NCBI GenBank assembly: GCA_024636785.1
Contig: JAGXGK010000025.1
Coordinates: 19,476 to 83,475 of the forward strand
Reading direction: 5' to 3'
Source: Gammaproteobacteria bacterium
Lineage (GTDB): Bacteria > Pseudomonadota > Gammaproteobacteria > SZUA-229
DNA: 64,000 nt
Part shown: positions 18,307 through 53,408 of the stretch, one piece after another
Numbering within the stretch: position 1 is the stretch's first letter
How the letters are laid out: the number at the start of each line of letters is the position of its first letter
The notes under the pieces: generated by a model
What the model was told of the DNA's origin: nothing
Seen by the model: the letters and a program-made list of their open reading frames with translations, nothing else
Database searches by the model: none
Made by a program: the position numbers and the translations under genes

Positions 18307-18939
18307 CTAATTACTGCCGATGACTCCGGTTGGATCAATCGAATGCATATCCGGCAATTCATGAGCGATACCCTTGTGACAGTCGATACAGGTCTTGCCT
18401 TCATCAAGCGCAGTTGAGTGCTGCCTGATCGCGCGTCGCCCCTGTGTGCCGAAGTCCATGAATTCAAAGTCATGACAGTTTCGACACTCTCGTGAATCTG
18501 TTTTTTTCATCGCCGTCCAGACATTGCCAGCAAGTTTGAGACGTTTGGCCTCAAACTTCTCGCGTGTGTCGATGGTGCCAAGCGCTTTGTGCAATAGCTC
18601 GTTACTGGCCTGTATCTTGCGCACGATTTTATGCTGCCACTCTTTCGGTACATGGCAGTCAGGGCAGGTGGCGCGAACACCGGTGCGATTGCTGTAATGA
18701 ATGGTTTGCTTGTACTCTTCATAGACATTGTCTTTCATTTCATGACACGAGATACAGAAATCTTCAGTATTGGTCATCTCCATCGCGGTGTTGAAACCAC
18801 CCCAGAAGATGATACCCGCGACAAAGCCGACGGTGAGCAGAGCGCCCAGTGAATATCGGAGAGAAGGCTTCTTCAATTTCTCCCATAAGCGGCAGATAAT
18901 ATTGCACTCGGTAGATTTGTTGCTATTCATAACGGACAT
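18307..18939 (-). CDS. napC: NapC tetrahaem quinol dehydrogenase (NapC/NirT family)
   Basis: N-terminal TM helix and four CXXCH motifs (CISCH, CPDCH, CRNCH, CIDCH). Last gene of the nap operon. Confidence 0.93.
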   Translation of the reverse strand: MSVMNSNKSTECNIICRLWEKLKKPSLRYSLGALLTVGFVAGIIFWGGFNTAMEMTNTEDFCISCHEMKDNVYEEYKQTIHYSNRTGVRATCPDCHVPKEWQHKIVRKIQASNELLHKALGTIDTREKFEAKRLKLAGNVWTAMKKTDSRECRNCHDFEFMDFGTQGRRAIRQHSTALDEGKTCIDCHKGIAHELPDMHSIDPTGVIGSN

Positions 18940-31490: not shown

Positions 31491-32342
31491 ATGAAGTTAT
31501 TTCTGGTTTTCAGCTTTTTACTGAATTTATTGTTCTTTCACCTTTCTGCTTATGCAACTGCACCGCTGGAGAAAGAAATTCCCATCCAAAAACGGGCGGA
31601 TGCAGCAGCAAGCTTTGACTACGATAGCGCCCTTAGAATTAGTCGAGAGGCTATTGATAACCAATTAGGGGAATATGCATTTACCAATGCCGAAGGTCAG
31701 GCAGTTGCAATGAGTGATTTCGCGGGCAAGCCGCTGGTCTTAAGCATGGTTTTTACCAGCTGTTATCAGATCTGTCCGATGACAGCCCGGCATCTGTCCA
31801 AGGTGGTGGAAAAGGCACGTGACGCCCTGGGCAAGGACAATTTTGCTGTCGCCATTGTCGGTTTTGACACTCCCGTTGATACGCCCGAAGCCATGCAGTA
31901 TTTTGCCAACAAGCAGGGCGTTCATAACAAGGATTGGCACTTATTGAGTATTTCCGCTGATGATGTAAAAGCCCTGTCGAAGGATACTGGCTTTATATAT
32001 TTTCCTTCGGCCAGTGGATTTGATCATCTGATTCAGACCACCATCATTGATGCAGAGGGAAAAGTTTATCGGCAGGTGTATGGTCAGGTATTTGATACGC
32101 CCATGTTAATTGAGCCACTGAAGGAGTTGATATTAGGTCGGCCACAGCCGGATCAGACTTTTCTTTCTGATCTTTCTAACAAGGTCAGGTTTTTCTGTAC
32201 CACCTATGATCCGGTTCGTGATAATTATTATTTTGACTATTCGTTGTTTCTGGGTATTCTAATAGGTGGCTCAATTATTTTGTTCACATTTGTGGTTATA
32301 TTCAGAGAGTGGCGTAAAGGTAATCAACGCTCTCATACTTGA
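31491..32342 (+). CDS. SCO/SenC family copper chaperone (copy 2) with C-terminal TM anchor
   Basis: Signal peptide, thioredoxin-fold FTSCYQICP (CxxxC), His in GFDHLIQT and C-terminal TM helix LFLGILIGGSIILFTFVVIF. Confidence 0.8.
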   Translation: MKLFLVFSFLLNLLFFHLSAYATAPLEKEIPIQKRADAAASFDYDSALRISREAIDNQLGEYAFTNAEGQAVAMSDFAGKPLVLSMVFTSCYQICPMTARHLSKVVEKARDALGKDNFAVAIVGFDTPVDTPEAMQYFANKQGVHNKDWHLLSISADDVKALSKDTGFIYFPSASGFDHLIQTTIIDAEGKVYRQVYGQVFDTPMLIEPLKELILGRPQPDQTFLSDLSNKVRFFCTTYDPVRDNYYFDYSLFLGILIGGSIILFTFVVIFREWRKGNQRSHT

Positions 32343-32413: not shown

Positions 32414-33976
32414 GTGTTGATCAATCCTATGAAGAGAGCCTATCTGGCTCTGGAATCCTGGTTCAATATTTCTTTTGGCACACATTGGAATCCAATGTAC
32501 CATCTGGGCACATTGACATTTTTTTTGTTCTGGATCATTCTGGTTACGGGTCTTTATCTGTTTGGGTTTTTTCATGGCAGTATCGATGGCGCTTATGACT
32601 CTGTCGAATATATCACTCACGATCAGTGGTATGCGGCAGGTGTGATGCGAAGCCTGCATCGTTACGCTTCCGATGCGGCGATTATTACCATTCTGCTGCA
32701 CCTGTTCAAAGAGCTGGCCTCGGGCCGTTATCACGGTGCCCGCTGGTTTTCCTGGGTATCAGGCTTGCCAACACTCTGGCTGGTAGTGACACTGGGTATA
32801 ACGGGCTACTGGCTGGTATGGGACGAACTGGGGCAATACGTGGCCATTGGTTCTGCTAGGCTGCTGGACTCCCTGCCCATATTTTCCGGTTCCATGGCCA
32901 GCAACTTCCTGCAAGGGCAGATGACAGATCGCTTCTTTATTCTTATAGAATTTTTGCATCTACTGGGTCAGCCGCTAATACTGTTTTTTCTGTTATGGCT
33001 GCACGTCAAACGACTTTCGAACGTCAATATAAATCCACCACGCGGTCTGGCTATAGGTTGTTTTTTAGCCCTGCTGGCATTGTCATTTATCAAGCCTGCG
33101 GTGAGTCATGCCCCGGCTAATTTGAGTTCAATGCCAACAGTGCTGGAGCTCGACTGGTTCTACCTGAACGCCTATCCATTGATGGATTACTGGTCAGAAG
33201 GTAAAACATGGTTGTTGGCAACCGCCATCACAGTTATATTGATGCTGCTGCCATTGCTACCGACAAAGAAAGCTGTCCCCGCTGCGGTGGTTGATCTCGC
33301 GCACTGCAATGGTTGCGAATTGTGTTTTGATGACTGCCCCTTTGAAGCAATCTCAGTGCAGGCGCGTACTGACGGCAGAAAATTTGAAAAGGAAGTTGTT
33401 GTCGATCCCTCCCTATGTGCATCCTGTGGAATTTGTATGGGCTCGTGTCCCTCCTCAAATCCATTTAGACAGTCCAATGAAGAGCTTAAAACGGGTATTG
33501 ATATGCCGTCGTTGCCGGTCGACAAAGTGCGTACCTTGACCGAACAGGCGGTAACATCAATGACCGGTTCCGCCAATGTTCTTCTGATCGGCTGTGAGCA
33601 CGGGTTTAATGTCAAGCAGCTTGATAATAATGAAACCGGAAGTGTGAAGTTAATTTGTAGCGGTATGATTCCACCCTCACTGATTGAATATGCATTAAAG
33701 AAAGGCGCAGACGGTGTGATGATTGTAGGTTGTCGCCACAATGACTGCTTCTATCGTTTTGGCAATCTCTGGATAGACAAGCGATTTTCCGGTGAACGCA
33801 AGCCGATACTCAGGAGCCGTGCAGATCGGCGTCGTATTAAAGTATTTGGCGGCGCTGAAACGGATAAAAAACTAATTGAAAAAGAACTGGAAGTTTTTCG
33901 CCATGAATTACTGGCGATAACCGAGCAAACTGATCTGCCTGAACAGGCTGAAATTAAAGAGTCTCCAGATGTTTAA
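32414..33976 (+). CDS. fusion protein: dihaem cytochrome b N-domain + 2x[4Fe-4S] ferredoxin + MvhD/FlpD-like domain
   Basis: Haem b His pairs are SLHRYASDAAIITILLH (H-x13-H) and FLHLLGQPLILFFLLWLH (H-x14-H). Fe-S motifs are CNGCELCFDDCP and CASCGICMGSCP. The MvhD-like block is KLICSGMIPPSLIEYALKKGADGVMIVGCRHNDCFY. Confidence 0.8.
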   Translation: MLINPMKRAYLALESWFNISFGTHWNPMYHLGTLTFFLFWIILVTGLYLFGFFHGSIDGAYDSVEYITHDQWYAAGVMRSLHRYASDAAIITILLHLFKELASGRYHGARWFSWVSGLPTLWLVVTLGITGYWLVWDELGQYVAIGSARLLDSLPIFSGSMASNFLQGQMTDRFFILIEFLHLLGQPLILFFLLWLHVKRLSNVNINPPRGLAIGCFLALLALSFIKPAVSHAPANLSSMPTVLELDWFYLNAYPLMDYWSEGKTWLLATAITVILMLLPLLPTKKAVPAAVVDLAHCNGCELCFDDCPFEAISVQARTDGRKFEKEVVVDPSLCASCGICMGSCPSSNPFRQSNEELKTGIDMPSLPVDKVRTLTEQAVTSMTGSANVLLIGCEHGFNVKQLDNNETGSVKLICSGMIPPSLIEYALKKGADGVMIVGCRHNDCFYRFGNLWIDKRFSGERKPILRSRADRRRIKVFGGAETDKKLIEKELEVFRHELLAITEQTDLPEQAEIKESPDV

Positions 33977-41288: not shown

Positions 41289-43073
<1,785 letters not shown>

Positions 43074-47770: not shown

Positions 47771-49360
47771 TTAGTGGCTGGTGCCTTCCAGATATCGGGT
47801 TTTGTTGTAGACATTGTATTTGCCCGAGGGTTTGTTCATTGGCAGGCGCTTGATTTCTTCGAGGCTGTTGGCGTCGTAAACAATCACTGCGCCGTCGGTA
47901 TCCCAGATGCTGAGCAGGGCGTATTTGCCGTCGCGGGTGAACTCGACGTGAGCGGCGGTTTTGCCGGGGGCGGGGCGCAGGGTTTTGACGATTTCCAGGG
48001 TGCTTTTGTCGATTACATGCACGGCATCTTTATTCGGGCCGAAGAAAACATCAACCCAGGCGTAGGGACTGTTTTTATGGCTGCGCATGAAGAAGCCGGG
48101 TCCGAGGGTTTCGATGTTTTTGATGGTTTTCCAGCTTTCCATATCGATGACGCTGACGTTATTAGCTTTCAGGTTGGGCGTGGCCAGCACGGTGCGGCCC
48201 TGATATTCCCAGGTAATGCCGGAGCCGAGGTGGGGCATGCCGGGCAGCGCCAGATCAGGCACGATGACGCGACCGACATCCAGATTGACCACCTGACCCT
48301 TGCCTTCGCGCGAGGCACCGATCAGGTTCACGTAGTCCTGGTCGAAGAAAAAATCATCCAGATAATCGCTGACTTCGATTTTTCTTACCGGGAAGGGATC
48401 CGGCGTGATTTTCTCGCCGGAATCTTCGCGGTAATCGTGTACCCAGAAACCAAAGCCGGCAGGCGGATTATCATCGTAGGAGATTTCCCACAGTTCGGGG
48501 ATATCCTTTAAGGCGGCGATGAAACTGTTGCGTGGTGGTGCGGTATAGACGGCGCTGACGCGGGAAGTTTTGCCGGTATGGTCTTTGGCTTCGAACAATT
48601 TGATCGGGCTTAGGTCTTTGGCATCGAGCAGTACCAGAGTGTGCGGCAGGTAATTGGCGACCATGACATAGCGACCATCAGCAGAGACCGCCTGATTACG
48701 GGTGTTGATGCCGGCACGGATTTCGGCGACCAGTTTCAGGTTGTAAATATCGTATTTGCTGATCCAGCCATCGCGTGAGGCAAAGTAGACGAAGCGGCCG
48801 TCCGGTGAATATTTGGGGCCGCCGTGCAGGGCAAAGCGCGACTTGAAGCGGTGGATGGGTTCCAGTTTATCGCCATCGAGCAGGGTGACGTGGTGGTCGC
48901 CCAGCTCAACCACCAGAAACAGGTTCAGCAGATCGGCGACTTCAAACACGGGCTTGTCGGAGAGTTCGCTTGCTTTGTTATGAATGATCTGGCTGGCTCT
49001 GATTTCAGCCATGCCCCACACCGGCATCTGTTCCAGCGGTGTATAGATATAGTCAACCAGTGACCGGGTTTCTGTCTCGGAAAGCTTTTCCCTGAAGGCC
49101 GGCATCTGGGTGGCGACGCGGCCATTGGTAATCACTGTAGCCGCGTCTTTCATTTTCAGTCGTTTAAGATTTTCCGGCAGCAGTGCAGGCCCCATGCCGC
49201 CAAGGCGATGTTCATTGTGACATTCAGCACAATGATCCCGATAGAGTTGCTGTGTCTTGTTGACAGTCTTAGCCTCGGCCGATTCAGCCTGTGCCGGAGC
49301 CGAAAGTGTTGTTGCCAGCAGGCAGAAAGTGCAGAGCGTAAAAAAGGTTTTGTGGTTCAT
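47771..49360 (-). CDS. nirN: NirN-like cytochrome cd1-family protein
   Basis: 529 aa. Signal peptide, CAECHN haem c domain, cd1-type propeller and C-terminal KPSGKYNVYNKTRY. No other nirN candidate in the window. Confidence 0.65.
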   Translation of the reverse strand: MNHKTFFTLCTFCLLATTLSAPAQAESAEAKTVNKTQQLYRDHCAECHNEHRLGGMGPALLPENLKRLKMKDAATVITNGRVATQMPAFREKLSETETRSLVDYIYTPLEQMPVWGMAEIRASQIIHNKASELSDKPVFEVADLLNLFLVVELGDHHVTLLDGDKLEPIHRFKSRFALHGGPKYSPDGRFVYFASRDGWISKYDIYNLKLVAEIRAGINTRNQAVSADGRYVMVANYLPHTLVLLDAKDLSPIKLFEAKDHTGKTSRVSAVYTAPPRNSFIAALKDIPELWEISYDDNPPAGFGFWVHDYREDSGEKITPDPFPVRKIEVSDYLDDFFFDQDYVNLIGASREGKGQVVNLDVGRVIVPDLALPGMPHLGSGITWEYQGRTVLATPNLKANNVSVIDMESWKTIKNIETLGPGFFMRSHKNSPYAWVDVFFGPNKDAVHVIDKSTLEIVKTLRPAPGKTAAHVEFTRDGKYALLSIWDTDGAVIVYDANSLEEIKRLPMNKPSGKYNVYNKTRYLEGTSH

Positions 49361-49386
49361 GAAAGTTATTTTCTATAAAAATATGA

Positions 49387-49716
49387 TTAATCGACAACGT
49401 GGACTGTGCCCGTCATTTTCGGATGCGGGCCACAACGGTAGGGAAAGGAGCCGGTCTGTTTGAAGGTGCGCTCGTAGGTGTCGTCGGGGAACAGATAATC
49501 AGCCGGCTCTTCCTCCCCCAGCGCCTCAAACCAGACGCTGTGGTACTGGCGCTTTTCATGATTCTCCCAGCGTACGGTCTGGCCGCGTTTGATGGTGATT
49601 TCCTGAGGAATGAATTTGTATTCTTCAAGGACTACCAGCGGTGTTTCATCAGTTGCCATCGCTGCGCTCAGGCTGAGTGTCGAGATAAAGATCAGTAACA
49701 ATGACTGCCATTTCAT
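49387..49716 (-). CDS. amicyanin/plastocyanin-like type-1 cupredoxin
   Basis: Signal peptide. Type-1 Cu ligands are H in QYHSVWF and CGPHPKM (C-x2-H-x2-M). Confidence 0.8.
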   Translation of the reverse strand: MKWQSLLLIFISTLSLSAAMATDETPLVVLEEYKFIPQEITIKRGQTVRWENHEKRQYHSVWFEALGEEEPADYLFPDDTYERTFKQTGSFPYRCGPHPKMTGTVHVVD

Positions 49717-49825: not shown

Positions 49826-51595
49826 TTATTTCCCTACGGCATTAATTTCCGCATCGTCATTATCAAAGCCCAGTATCAGCCCCAGTGAGACATGATGGAA
49901 ACGGCTGTTGCTGTAATCATCGTGTATGGCAAAACCGATGCTGTACATCTGGTCGGTGCTCATGCTGATGTCACCGGCTTTGTCCGAGCTGAGCTTACGG
50001 GTCATTTCAACCGTCCATACGCCATTTTCAAGGCTGCCGGTGAAATCCACTCCCTGACCGCCAGTCATGACGCGCTCGGCCAGAATGTAACCATCTTCAG
50101 ATTCACCTGTACCCGCTTTGTAGCGCAGCAGATCCATAAATGAACCATTTTCCAGCGCGGCCTGAATCTCGCCAGCCTCTTTCAATTTGTCCCAGCCGCC
50201 GCGTTTGGCATCATTTTTACCCTCGATCTCGATCTCGGTACGGCTCTCTTTAAGGTACTTGGTGAAGCCATTGCTGGAGTCGAGTCGACTGTCGGCCAGC
50301 GCTGACTGATCGGGCTGGTCAGGCATATCGTTGACATCGTGATGACAGCTTTGCCAGCAACCGGCACGCTCCGTGTATTCTACTTTGGGGTCGTCCTCAT
50401 TAATCGCCGCGAGCATAATTGCCAGCTTGATCGGATTTTTCGGATCCATCTTGCCGCCTTCTGCAAAAGGAATAGCTGCATGTTCACCGTCCGGCCACTG
50501 GAAGCGCATGTACAGATTTTCGCCATCGTGTTTGGCCTGCACGTTAACGTCAATGCTGCCGCGCTTGCCGGGAATAGGGGTAGGTTCGAGTTTCTCGCCG
50601 GAAACAATCAGTTTCCCGATACTCATTCCTTCACCTTCATGACAATCGAAGCAACGGTCACCGTATAAAAATCCACGTTTGCCGCCGTGGTCGCTGCCCT
50701 TGAGTACCCACTCCATAGAGGCCTGACCCGGATAAAAGAGGGTGACTTCTGCGGCTTCAATGCCTGACCAGTCGACACCCGTGACCGATTTTGTGCCGGT
50801 AGCGGCGGGTGCGGTATCAGCCTGACTTGAAGCTGGTGCTGCCAATTCGGTTTTGGCGGGCGTAGCATCCTCAGTTGTTTCAGTCTCAATAGCCGCCGCT
50901 GTTCCAGCCGGGTCATCTGTTGTGGTGACCAGCTTTTTATCGTTATCGATAAAAGCCTGCCACTGTGGCGCTATGGGGCGTTTGTTTTTTTCAACTGGTT
51001 TTGAAAGCTCTTCCAGCTCGCTTTCGCTCAACTGATCATGAACCTTGCTGTGCGCAATACCTTTGTGGCAATCGATGCAGGTATTGCCCCTTTCCATGGC
51101 GCCGGCATGCTGCCTACGCGAACGTTTCTTTTGATCTTCCGGCTTCATCGAATCGAAATTGTGGCAGTTTCGGCATTCGCGTGAATCTGTCTCCTTCATC
51201 GAACGCCAGACATTTTTGGCCAGGAATAAACGCTTGGCATTGAATTTTTCCGGGGTGTCGATGGTACCAAGCACCTTATGCAGGACCTCGTTACTGGCCT
51301 TTATTTTGCGCACGACTTTGTGCACCCAGGGGTCGGGTACATGGCAGTCTGAGCAGGTGGCGCGCACGCCACTACGGTTGGTGTAATGAATGGTTTTTTT
51401 GTATTCCTGATAAACATTCTCTTCCATCTCATGACAGGAGATGCAGAATTCCAGGGTATTGGTGACTTCCATGGCGGTATTGAAACCACCCCAGAAGATG
51501 ACACCGACAATCATGAAAAACAGGGCCGCGCCCAGTGTGGTTCCCATCAGGACCTTGCGCGACATTAAACCGAATTTCCTAGATGTATTAGTCAT
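49826..51595 (-). CDS. nirT: NirT (NapC/NirT tetrahaem) fused to a C-terminal NirB/EB_dh-like haem domain
   Basis: The N-terminal ~190 aa are highly similar to NapC at 18307 and carry four CXXCH motifs. An Ala/Thr/Pro-rich linker follows. The C-terminal ~330 aa carry CFDCH and CWQSCH (CX3CH). Confidence 0.75.
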   Translation of the reverse strand: MTNTSRKFGLMSRKVLMGTTLGAALFFMIVGVIFWGGFNTAMEVTNTLEFCISCHEMEENVYQEYKKTIHYTNRSGVRATCSDCHVPDPWVHKVVRKIKASNEVLHKVLGTIDTPEKFNAKRLFLAKNVWRSMKETDSRECRNCHNFDSMKPEDQKKRSRRQHAGAMERGNTCIDCHKGIAHSKVHDQLSESELEELSKPVEKNKRPIAPQWQAFIDNDKKLVTTTDDPAGTAAAIETETTEDATPAKTELAAPASSQADTAPAATGTKSVTGVDWSGIEAAEVTLFYPGQASMEWVLKGSDHGGKRGFLYGDRCFDCHEGEGMSIGKLIVSGEKLEPTPIPGKRGSIDVNVQAKHDGENLYMRFQWPDGEHAAIPFAEGGKMDPKNPIKLAIMLAAINEDDPKVEYTERAGCWQSCHHDVNDMPDQPDQSALADSRLDSSNGFTKYLKESRTEIEIEGKNDAKRGGWDKLKEAGEIQAALENGSFMDLLRYKAGTGESEDGYILAERVMTGGQGVDFTGSLENGVWTVEMTRKLSSDKAGDISMSTDQMYSIGFAIHDDYSNSRFHHVSLGLILGFDNDDAEINAVGK

Positions 51596-51690: not shown

Positions 51691-51718
51691 GGGCGGACAT
51701 ACATGTTGTAGTCCGCCC
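51691..51718 (-). other. GC-rich hairpin between nirS copy 2 and nirT
   Basis: GGGCGGAC...GTCCGCCC stem. The U-tract on the minus strand is poor, so it may be an attenuator or stabiliser rather than a strong terminator. Confidence 0.5.
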
Positions 51719-51743
51719 CATTTCATTTATGTCGTAACTTTTA

Positions 51744-53408
51744 TTAAGTTACATGGTTAACGCGGTTATACACGTTGAACTTACCTGTTGGAGCGTAAAG
51801 TCCTTTAATACGTGCTTTTTCTTCCAGTGTTTTAGCATCAAAGATGATGATTTCACCGTTAGGTTTCAGACTGTCTGAACGATTCCATACAGATGCCCAT
51901 ACTTCGGTGCCATCTTTGTTGAACTCGAAGTGAACGGCTGCGTAGCCCTTTTTATCAGTTAGCTGAATAGTCTTAACAATCTTACGAGTTTTCTTGTCAA
52001 GAACTTTAACTGACTGCTGGATAGCAGGTTCAGGGTGTTTAGTCTGGTCTATCCAGACGTAATCACTCTTGGGATGGGTGCGCAGGAACACGCCTGCACC
52101 GTCGGTGTCAACGGTGTAGCAGAGTTTCCAGGCCTGATCTTTATGACCTTTTGGATCATTGCCCCAGACTGAGACTTTGCCCACGCCAAGATGCGTTGTA
52201 CCTGCTACAGGACCACACTTGTCATCGTTCCAGTTTGCACCAGGACCTGGGTGAGGTTTGCTGGCAACATCGATCATTGCTTCTAGCTTGCGATCCACGG
52301 TATCGATGACTACCATCTTGTCAGAAGCGTTAGCCGCGATCTGGAAGTAACGGCCTGTTGGGTCGAAGAAGCCATCATGCAGGTACTTGGCAGAATCGAT
52401 TTCGGTGATCTGCAGGTTATCAAGATCACTGTAATCAACCTGCCACATCTGACCTAATTCCTTCGCAGCCACTAACCAGGTAGGAGCCAACGGTGTGTCA
52501 TAGATCGCAGCAACACGTGACTCGTTAACATACTCACCATCAACGTTAACACCACGAGTAGAAACGACTTTCAGAGGTTCCATGGTTTTAGCATCAGCGA
52601 TAACGAAGTGGGGAGGCCAGTAACCGCCACCGATAACGTACTTGCCATCACCTGATACGGCAACGTCACGTGCGTCATAAGCAACCTGTACCTGAGCGAC
52701 TTTCATCTTGTCAGGGTTAGCCCATAGATCGATTTTAGTCATCATGCCATCACGACCCATGATGTACCAGAAACGGCCAGCGTCTTTAGCATGCAGGGTT
52801 TGATGATGTTCGACTGTTTTCAGTACGTGTACTGCATATCCGGTAGAAATGTGGGCAAGCACTTCTTTTTTATCACCGTCGATGATAGCGATCGAACCTT
52901 TATCACGTTCGATAGCGATGAAAAAATTCTCCCAGTTACGGCCATGCATTGGCTTGCTAGGATAATCTTTTGGTTCTATATAAACCTTCCAGCGTTCTTT
53001 CATTAATGCCAGAGACATTTCGGGTGGTACTGGGGGCTCCATCTGGATATACCGGGCCAGCAGGTTTATTTCCTCTTTGCTGAAGATATCATCAAAGTTG
53101 TTCATGCCGCCTTCGGTACCGAGGGTAATAATTCGCTCCAGACGTTTTGTGCCCAGTTTGAGAGTGCCTTTGGTGTTTTTGGCTTTATTGGGTTTTGGTT
53201 CCAGGTTTTTACCCGTGGCACCGACGCGTAAAACACCATGACAACCGGCACAACGCTGGAAGTACATGCTCTTTGCGGTTTCAAATTCAGCCTCGTTAAG
53301 AGGTACGAATTCATCTTTTTTGGCGAAGGCTACACCCGAAGATGCGGCCATGCCCACGCATGCGGCAACGAGTGCTGCACCGTATTTTAACTTATGTTTC
53401 GTGCTCAT
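51744..53408 (-). CDS. nirS: cytochrome cd1 nitrite reductase NirS (copy 2)
   Basis: 554 aa. Signal peptide, CAGCHG, d1 propeller and C-terminal TGKFNVYNRVNHVT. Its codon usage is distinct from neighbouring genes. Confidence 0.93.
   Translation of the reverse strand: MSTKHKLKYGAALVAACVGMAASSGVAFAKKDEFVPLNEAEFETAKSMYFQRCAGCHGVLRVGATGKNLEPKPNKAKNTKGTLKLGTKRLERIITLGTEGGMNNFDDIFSKEEINLLARYIQMEPPVPPEMSLALMKERWKVYIEPKDYPSKPMHGRNWENFFIAIERDKGSIAIIDGDKKEVLAHISTGYAVHVLKTVEHHQTLHAKDAGRFWYIMGRDGMMTKIDLWANPDKMKVAQVQVAYDARDVAVSGDGKYVIGGGYWPPHFVIADAKTMEPLKVVSTRGVNVDGEYVNESRVAAIYDTPLAPTWLVAAKELGQMWQVDYSDLDNLQITEIDSAKYLHDGFFDPTGRYFQIAANASDKMVVIDTVDRKLEAMIDVASKPHPGPGANWNDDKCGPVAGTTHLGVGKVSVWGNDPKGHKDQAWKLCYTVDTDGAGVFLRTHPKSDYVWIDQTKHPEPAIQQSVKVLDKKTRKIVKTIQLTDKKGYAAVHFEFNKDGTEVWASVWNRSDSLKPNGEIIIFDAKTLEEKARIKGLYAPTGKFNVYNRVNHVT

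Follow-up and report, generated by a model that had tools for sequence, protein, structure and literature searches.

The nirTB gene encodes a genuine single polypeptide, in which a membrane-anchored tetrahaem module of the NapC/NirT type is joined to a NirB-type module carrying two further haem c motifs. This architecture is common and has been reported previously. The gene is located directly downstream of a second copy of nirS, and its product probably carries electrons from quinol to the cd1 nitrite reductase NirS independently of cytochrome bc1, either directly or via a cupredoxin encoded next to it. The stretch of DNA analysed, referred to here as the window, is 64,000 nucleotides long and derives from a 1.94-Mb metagenome-assembled genome (MAG) that is 72.6% complete. 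No other EB_dh gene is encoded in this MAG.

Gene Organization of the nirS2-nirTB Block

The block consists of four genes, all located on the minus strand, with nirS copy 2 at its beginning and the gene of a NirN-like protein at its end. The first gene (nirS2, 51744..53408) encodes a cd1 nitrite reductase of 554 aa, which matches the Pfam Cytochrom_D1 profile with an E-value of 4.7e-115 and also contains a cytochrome c domain. It is followed after 148 bp by nirTB (49826..51595), an open reading frame with an ATG start whose 589-aa product is the fused NirT-NirB cytochrome, for which six c-haem sites are predicted. The earlier note is correct in placing an in-frame NirT-NirB fusion immediately behind the second nirS. 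The third gene, separated from nirTB by 109 bp, encodes a secreted type-1 copper protein of 109 aa (49387..49716; Pfam Cupredoxin_1 3.5e-8, Copper-bind 7.2e-8). Its type-1 copper motif, H...CGPHPKM, is intact, and the cupredoxin is a candidate electron shuttle. The last gene begins after a spacer of 26 bp and encodes a NirN-like cd1-family protein of 529 aa (47771..49360), composed of a c-haem domain and a d1-type propeller (Cytochrom_D1 1.1e-119) and sharing about 27% identity with NirS homologues. The other copy of nirS in the window (41289..43031) is situated beside nirE, nirF, nirDL, nirGH, and nirJ. In its GC profile the block does not stand out as foreign DNA.

Within the spacer between nirS and nirTB, a GC-rich hairpin can be read from the sequence (51691..51719, minus strand), with the arms GGGGCGGAC and GTCCGCCC and a loop of 12 nt. 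No T run stands behind it, and the consensus scan did not call a terminator at this position. The scan for promoters and terminators between the genes of the block also returned nothing significant. Such a hairpin could uncouple the expression of nirS from that of nirTB.

The NirT Half and the Linker

The N-terminal end of the protein carries a predicted transmembrane anchor at approximately residues 17-37 (51485..51547, minus strand). The Kyte-Doolittle hydropathy reaches its maximum of 2.28 over the 19 residues starting at residue 15, and the AF2 model places a helix across residues 13-45. The NapC/NirT tetrahaem domain occupies residues 22-185 (51041..51532, minus strand) and is recognized by the PF03264 (Cytochrom_NNT) profile with an E-value of 2.8e-72 and a score of 242.5 bits against a cut-off of 24.1, which assigns it to the NapC/NirT family. 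NapC/NirT proteins act as quinol dehydrogenases. The domain contains four CXXCH motifs, CISCH at residue 51, CSDCH at 81, CRNCH at 141, and CIDCH at 173, all of which are invariant in 48 full-length homologues. The earlier note considered this part a paralogue of the NapC encoded in the same window (18307..18939, minus strand); the alignment of the two has 67% identity over 171 residues (E 1e-84) and contains all four of the identical runs quoted there.

The more specific NCBIfam models define the position of the protein within the family. The napC_nirT model TIGR02161 gives 260.4 bits (9.1e-78), under its trusted cut-off of 310.6, and the NapC equivalog model NF007906 (2.7e-73) also remains under its cut-off. 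The TorC model TIGR02162 gives 237.6 bits (2.7e-70) against a cut-off of 478.2 and matches residues 28-205 only. Since these scores lie below the NapC and TorC cut-offs, the protein is a member of the family, yet neither a NapC nor a TorC equivalog.

The tetrahaem domain is connected to the C-terminal part by a low-complexity linker at residues 186-272 (50780..51040, minus strand). The Ala/Thr/Pro-rich composition that had been ascribed to it was found as claimed, with Glu, Asp, and Lys also abundant. The linker is around 85 residues long here and 59-106 residues long in the 48 homologues, a spread which agrees with a flexible tether. In the full-length AF2 model, residues 225-269 have a pLDDT below 50, so disorder is predicted for this region. 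The pLDDT of 62.6 and the pTM of 0.56 for this model as a whole are too low for reading inter-domain geometry or docking from it.

The NirB-Like Domain

The C-terminal part is a NirB-like domain at residues 275-570 (49886..50773, minus strand), and the profile search assigns it to PF09459 with an E-value of 2e-31 and a score of 110 bits against a cut-off of 33.3. This agrees with the EB_dh type that the earlier note had proposed from sequence blocks. The InterPro entry holding PF09459 presumably has 'cytochrome c-552' in its name, and several homologues are named 'cytochrome C552' by NCBI. The two haem motifs reported for this region, one CXXCH and one CX3CH, are both present. The fifth predicted haem c site of the protein is CFDCH at residues 315-319 (50639..50653, minus strand), and the sixth is CWQSCH at residues 413-418 (50342..50359, minus strand), a CX3CH site of the pattern CW..CH.

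Both sites are retained in all 92 homologous domains that were aligned, in which the mean column identity is 66%. In the CFDCH site the two cysteines and the histidine are invariant, and in the CWQSCH site the tryptophan is invariant together with both cysteines and the histidine. Such conservation of both extra haem motifs is far above chance. Across the 48 full-length homologues, too, these two motifs are invariant, as are the four of the NirT half. The invariant residues also include candidate axial ligands, which in domain numbering are His42, Lys121, Met133, Met163, His297, His306, and His307. The CW..CH motif is not restricted to the fusions and also occurs in free-standing NirB as well as in NirB-like proteins whose genes are not part of a nir cluster.

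The AF2 model of the domain alone has a pLDDT of 83 and a pTM of 0.87, and in this model the C-terminal domain adopts the EB_dh fold. The best PDB matches found by Foldseek were 7b04 (2.7e-9) and 2ivf_C (9e-9), the haem subunits NxrC of the Kuenenia nitrite oxidoreductase and EbdC of ethylbenzene dehydrogenase, respectively. These were followed by CBM9 modules. The sequence search of the PDB gave weak matches to NrfH and NrfB only for the whole protein and a weak match to NxrC only (E 0.0023) for the domain profile, and no structure of the NirB type was found there. The literature searched on PF09459/EB_dh and on CX3CH motifs with NirB returned nothing on NirB-type domains.

Membership of the domain among the haem b gamma subunits represented by EbdC and NxrC was considered and rejected. 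The motifs of the domain are of the c type, and the TIGR03477 model gives only 22 bits against a cut-off of 169.85. The genes beside nirTB are nirS, the cupredoxin, and the nirN-like gene, with no gene for an alpha or beta subunit of a molybdenum enzyme among them.

Relationship to Unfused NirB

As a stand-in for the NirB of Pseudomonas stutzeri, an unfused cluster of the nirSTB type was used (L096, from genome G245 of the class sample described below). In this cluster, nirS is followed by nirT (an ORF of 221 aa), nirB (an ORF of 336 aa), and then nirC and nirF. The free-standing NirB has 40% identity to the NirB domain of the window (E 9e-73), which upholds the earlier assignment of the C-terminal domain as NirB-like, and its NirT has 62% identity to the NirT part. 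The haem motifs of the L096 NirB, CAACH and CWASCH, are found at matching places. The NirB domain of the window contains an insert of some tens of residues, which is absent from the L096 NirB.

In the maximum-likelihood tree, the NirB domains linked to nir genes, fused and unfused, form one clade with an SH-aLRT support of 100%. The NirB-like proteins whose genes follow a nirT-like gene at loci remote from nirS (L093, L095, L097, and L098) fall outside this clade. The protein of the window belongs to a clade with 99% support, which contains 37 single-domain fusions and one split-off ORF for a NirB domain (L042). The forms with two NirB domains arose repeatedly according to the tree, and in several lineages their first and second domains are sisters.

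Distribution of the Fusion

The fused reading frame is preserved among the relatives of the source genome. An uninterrupted full-length ORF is present in eight of the nine other genomes of the same genus, with 79-92% identity, and a fused ORF occurs in five of the nine other genera of the same family, with 63-66% identity. A search of species-representative genomes found at least 527 stretches encoding a relative of the C-terminal domain. Among the best 80 of these loci, all from other species, 79 encode the NirT part in one open frame with the domain, and the single exception begins at the end of a contig. The same best 80 loci encode one NirB domain in 58 cases and two in 21.

In the protein database, 3519 whole-protein matches were found among the 8000 candidates scored, many of them named 'NapC/NirT family cytochrome c', and the fusion is annotated as one CDS on complete RefSeq plasmids of Azospirillum brasilense, Ruegeria, and Aliiroseovarius. 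An even sample of the class, comprising 401 genomes, contains 35 with a NirB-like match (E <= 1e-10). Approximately 22 of these 35 matches lie in fused frames, of either 567-638 aa with one domain or 919-998 aa with two, and for approximately 5 the frame is a stand-alone one of 320-346 aa. Across the genomes searched, nir-linked NirB occurs predominantly in the fused form. The rarity of nirT-nirB fusions that the earlier note implied is not supported by these numbers, and the fusion is not new in kind: it is common, annotated in RefSeq, and already on record, as a fused NirTB is noted in PMC13086519.

The gene order around the fusion is strongly conserved. Among the best 80 of at least 527 loci, a gene of the nirS2 type (identity above 60%) lies directly upstream in 52 of the 55 with enough upstream DNA, and a cupredoxin lies directly downstream of nirTB in 59 of 73. 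The cupredoxin is followed by a NirN-like gene in 30 of 64 of these loci, and the remainder continue mostly with nirC-nirF. Many of the carriers are sulfur oxidisers, such as Sedimenticola, Chromatiaceae, and symbionts of invertebrates. The cupredoxin is a near-constant neighbour, which hints that a copper shuttle operates in many of the marine sulfur oxidisers.

Proposed Electron Transfer Function

In the proposed mechanism, the N-terminal helix would hold NirTB in the inner membrane, and quinol would be oxidised by the periplasmic NapC/NirT tetrahaem domain. The flexible tether of around 85 residues would bear the NirB-type domain of the EB_dh fold, which would bind two more c-haems, one at the CXXCH and one at the unusual CX3CH motif. 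Electrons could then pass from the NirB domain to NirS2, either directly or via the co-encoded periplasmic cupredoxin. As an outcome, the quinol pool would be linked to nitrite reduction, with cytochrome bc1 bypassed. The 6-haem wire towards NirS that the earlier note proposed is an inference, as are the occupancy of the haem sites, the direction of electron flow and its partners, and the use of the cupredoxin as a shuttle. We regard such a bc1-independent route from quinol to NirS as the probable function of NirTB, and the fusion itself speaks for NirT and NirB functioning as a single unit. The MAG also encodes cytochrome c1, and NirTB would accordingly run alongside bc1 as a separate branch and not be the sole route.

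A 2026 study of Stutzerimonas describes NapC/NirT proteins as electron-transfer cytochromes and states that NirS of clade 1b is always accompanied by nirT and nirB (PMC13086519). Strain ZoBell needs NirT for nitrite reduction (Jungst 1991; Hartig and Zumft 1999, both as cited in PMC13086519), and no biochemical study of a fused NirTB was found in the literature searched.

The presence of cytochrome c1 in the MAG also bears on an alternative role, in which the bulk of the electrons would reach NirS via bc1 and soluble carriers and NirTB would mainly be a reductive activator or regulator of the cd1 enzyme, switching NirS on or gating it against nitrate respiration. NirT may reductively activate cd1, according to Zajicek 2004 as cited in PMC13086519, and the nitrate-dependent arrest of nitrite reduction in Stutzerimonas has been connected with NirTB (PMC13086519). 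We nevertheless consider this role unlikely. A membrane protein with six or eight haems, encoded together with a cupredoxin beside nirS in dozens of lineages, seems excessive for a catalytic activator, and strain ZoBell no longer reduces nitrite in vivo when nirT is mutated (PMC13086519).

The unusual nature of CX3CH sites, of which the one in the window is invariant, leads to a further possibility, namely that this haem is a ligand-binding or catalytic centre, for example for the binding of NO or nitrite or for a peroxidase activity, tethered to a quinol-driven source of electrons. Several of the invariant Met, Lys, and His residues could provide a non-standard axial ligation. The pairs of NirT and NirB-like proteins encoded away from nir genes (L093, L095, L097, and L098) indicate that the NirB-like domain is not tied to NirS. 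This possibility appears improbable to us, given that no catalytic motif is known in the domain and that its solved fold relatives, NxrC and EbdC, are electron-transfer haem subunits.

The operation of the module in the reverse direction, with the quinone pool receiving electrons from donors in the periplasm, for instance those of sulfur oxidation, could be expected from the frequency of sulfur oxidisers among the carriers, and some NapC/NirT proteins, for example ImoA, have been proposed to work inward (PMC9600427). The conserved and tight linkage of nirTB is to nirS, which encodes a terminal reductase, and not to donor-oxidising enzymes, which makes reverse flow highly improbable. An assembly or frameshift artefact joining a separate nirT and nirB, which might be suspected in a MAG when unfused pairs occur elsewhere, was rejected as having practically no probability, as the frame is intact here, in the eight other genomes of the genus, in 79 of the best 80 (of at least 527) loci, all from independent assemblies, and on the complete RefSeq plasmids, and the linker is kept as a linker of 59-106 residues; the gene is one continuous frame, as the earlier note assumed.

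The reading of NirTB as a quinol-to-NirS route can be extended to the whole block. The genes nirS2, nirTB, cupredoxin, and nirN-like might together form a self-contained, horizontally exchanged, bc1-independent cassette, in which the blue copper protein replaces cytochrome c551, the CX3CH haem is special, and the presence of one or of two NirB domains has a tuning effect. We consider this extension possible but doubtful. If it were true, the special ligation or potential of the CX3CH haem would set the rate or the gating of nitrite reduction. The route by which electrons reach the cd1 nitrite reductase affects the energy yield, because the bypass of bc1 conserves less energy, and it also bears on nitrite accumulation and thereby on N2O and NO emissions and on the supply of nitrite to anammox.

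Comparison with Known Systems

The nearest described arrangement of separate proteins is the nirSTBM cluster of P. stutzeri, in which the tetrahaem NirT and the dihaem cytochrome c552 NirB are encoded in the like order directly after nirS (Jungst et al. 1991, as cited in PMC13086519). In the window, these two modules constitute one polypeptide with a linker of around 85 residues, and a cupredoxin gene follows in the place where P. stutzeri has cytochrome c551 (nirM).

TorC/DorC pentahaem cytochromes are built on the same design, in which a tetrahaem quinol dehydrogenase of the NapC/NirT type is extended at its C-terminus by a further haem domain and serves one periplasmic reductase. The C-terminal domain of the window's protein differs in being a dihaem domain of the EB_dh fold lying beyond the match to the TorC model, which ends at residue 205. 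The identity of the protein as TorC/DorC was rejected on this difference in the type of the C-terminal domain and on the TIGR02162 score (237.6 against 478.2). The gamma subunits EbdC, NxrC, DdhC, and SerC of the type II DMSO-reductase family have the fold and the PF09459 profile in common with the NirB-like domain. These subunits hold one non-covalent haem b and have a Mo-bisMGD alpha-beta partner, whereas the domain of the window has two motifs for covalent c-haems.

The remaining counterparts are fused proteins. The NirT-NirB-NirB proteins of around 900-990 aa from Sedimenticola, Chromatiaceae, and sulfur-oxidising symbionts have the N-terminal module, the linker, and the NirB-type domain in common with the protein of the window, with 53-60% identity and a like nirS context. 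They differ in having tandem NirB domains and eight predicted haems, compared with one domain and six predicted haems in the window. The 'fused NirTB' of Halomonas sp. 2A (Li et al. 2018, Environ Sci Technol 52:10665, as cited in PMC13086519) shares the fusion architecture. An identical block of nirS, nirTB, cupredoxin, and cd1-like genes is located on plasmid p4 of Azospirillum brasilense Sp7, where the four products are annotated as cytochrome D1 protein, NapC/NirT family cytochrome c, plastocyanin-azurin family protein, and cytochrome D1 protein. The fused protein of this strain is WP_059399791.1, named 'NapC/NirT family cytochrome c' in RefSeq, and its C-terminal domain has 51.6% identity to that of the window. 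Unlike the carriers in Halomonas and Azospirillum, the nirTB of the window comes from the MAG of an uncultured marine gammaproteobacterium.

Intergenic hairpin in the nirS-nirTB spacer

The spacer between the second nirS gene of the window (nirS2) and the fused nirT-nirB gene (nirTB) contains a GC-rich hairpin on the minus strand (window 51691-51719), in which the arms GGGGCGGAC and GTCCGCCC enclose a 12-nt loop. The hairpin is not followed by a T tract on its 3′ side. The hairpin might act as a stabiliser of the nirS transcript or as a partial transcription terminator, an effect that would determine the NirS-to-NirTB ratio.

Possibly split or duplicated forms of the NirB domain, and unfused forms

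Four RefSeq proteins of 388-413 aa (P0187, P0198, P0231 and P0239), named 'ethylbenzene dehydrogenase-related protein', come from Alkalimarinus, Marinobacter halophilus, Colwellia and Thalassotalea. Their N-termini fall within the linker sequence (for example, MLSEEELERLEAPDPE...) and they have no signal peptide. These entries look like the downstream half of nirTB, either split or mis-started, rather than true stand-alone NirB proteins.

In the related locus L042 (5143-8123), a 603-aa NirTB with one NirB domain precedes a separate ORF of 360 aa. This ORF is an extra NirB domain, nearly identical to that of the adjoining NirTB, and the two are sister branches in the maximum-likelihood tree, with lengths of 0.025 and 0.029. 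Either a tandem duplication has occurred very recently and is divided by a stop codon, or this is a two-domain gene carrying a frameshift. The upstream nirS of this locus is fragmented over several frames.

A second, unfused pair, with no nirS nearby, is present in a genome of the same genus as the window (L093, 7426-10382). Here a nirT-like gene (203 aa) is paired with one for a secreted NirB-like protein of 320 aa, which has the motifs CKECH and CWSACH and shares 38% identity with the window's NirB domain. Similar nirS-less pairs occur in L095, L097 and L098, and these pairs form an outgroup in the tree. Downstream of the L093 pair, the contig end truncates a large protein that has a signal peptide and a single CXXCH and that, from its sequence, looks like a putative outer-membrane porin.

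Possible horizontal spread of nirTB

NirTB sequences from metagenome-assembled genomes labelled Alphaproteobacteria (L050, L072, L077, L085 and L094) are nested within a gammaproteobacterial clade, where they belong to a seven-sequence group supported at 97%. Binning errors possibly underlie these labels. The nirTB gene is found on plasmids in Azospirillum, Ruegeria and Aliiroseovarius, and in Azospirillum the entire four-gene block is plasmid-borne. The nested position and the plasmid-borne copies together hint at horizontal spread.

Other genes of the window and the cupredoxin in the place of nirM

Elsewhere in the window, a 520-aa ORF (32414-33976, plus strand) combines an N-terminal cytochrome b domain, 4Fe-4S dicluster motifs and an FlpD (methyl-viologen-reducing hydrogenase delta) domain, and a SCO1/SenC-like gene (31491-32342) lies just upstream of it.

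Within the block between nirS2 and the NirN-like gene, no cytochrome c551 gene (nirM) was seen. The place where nirM would be is occupied by a cupredoxin gene, which together with the NirN-like gene spans 47771-49716 (minus strand) and holds the same position in 59 of 73 related loci (among the best 80 of at least 527).
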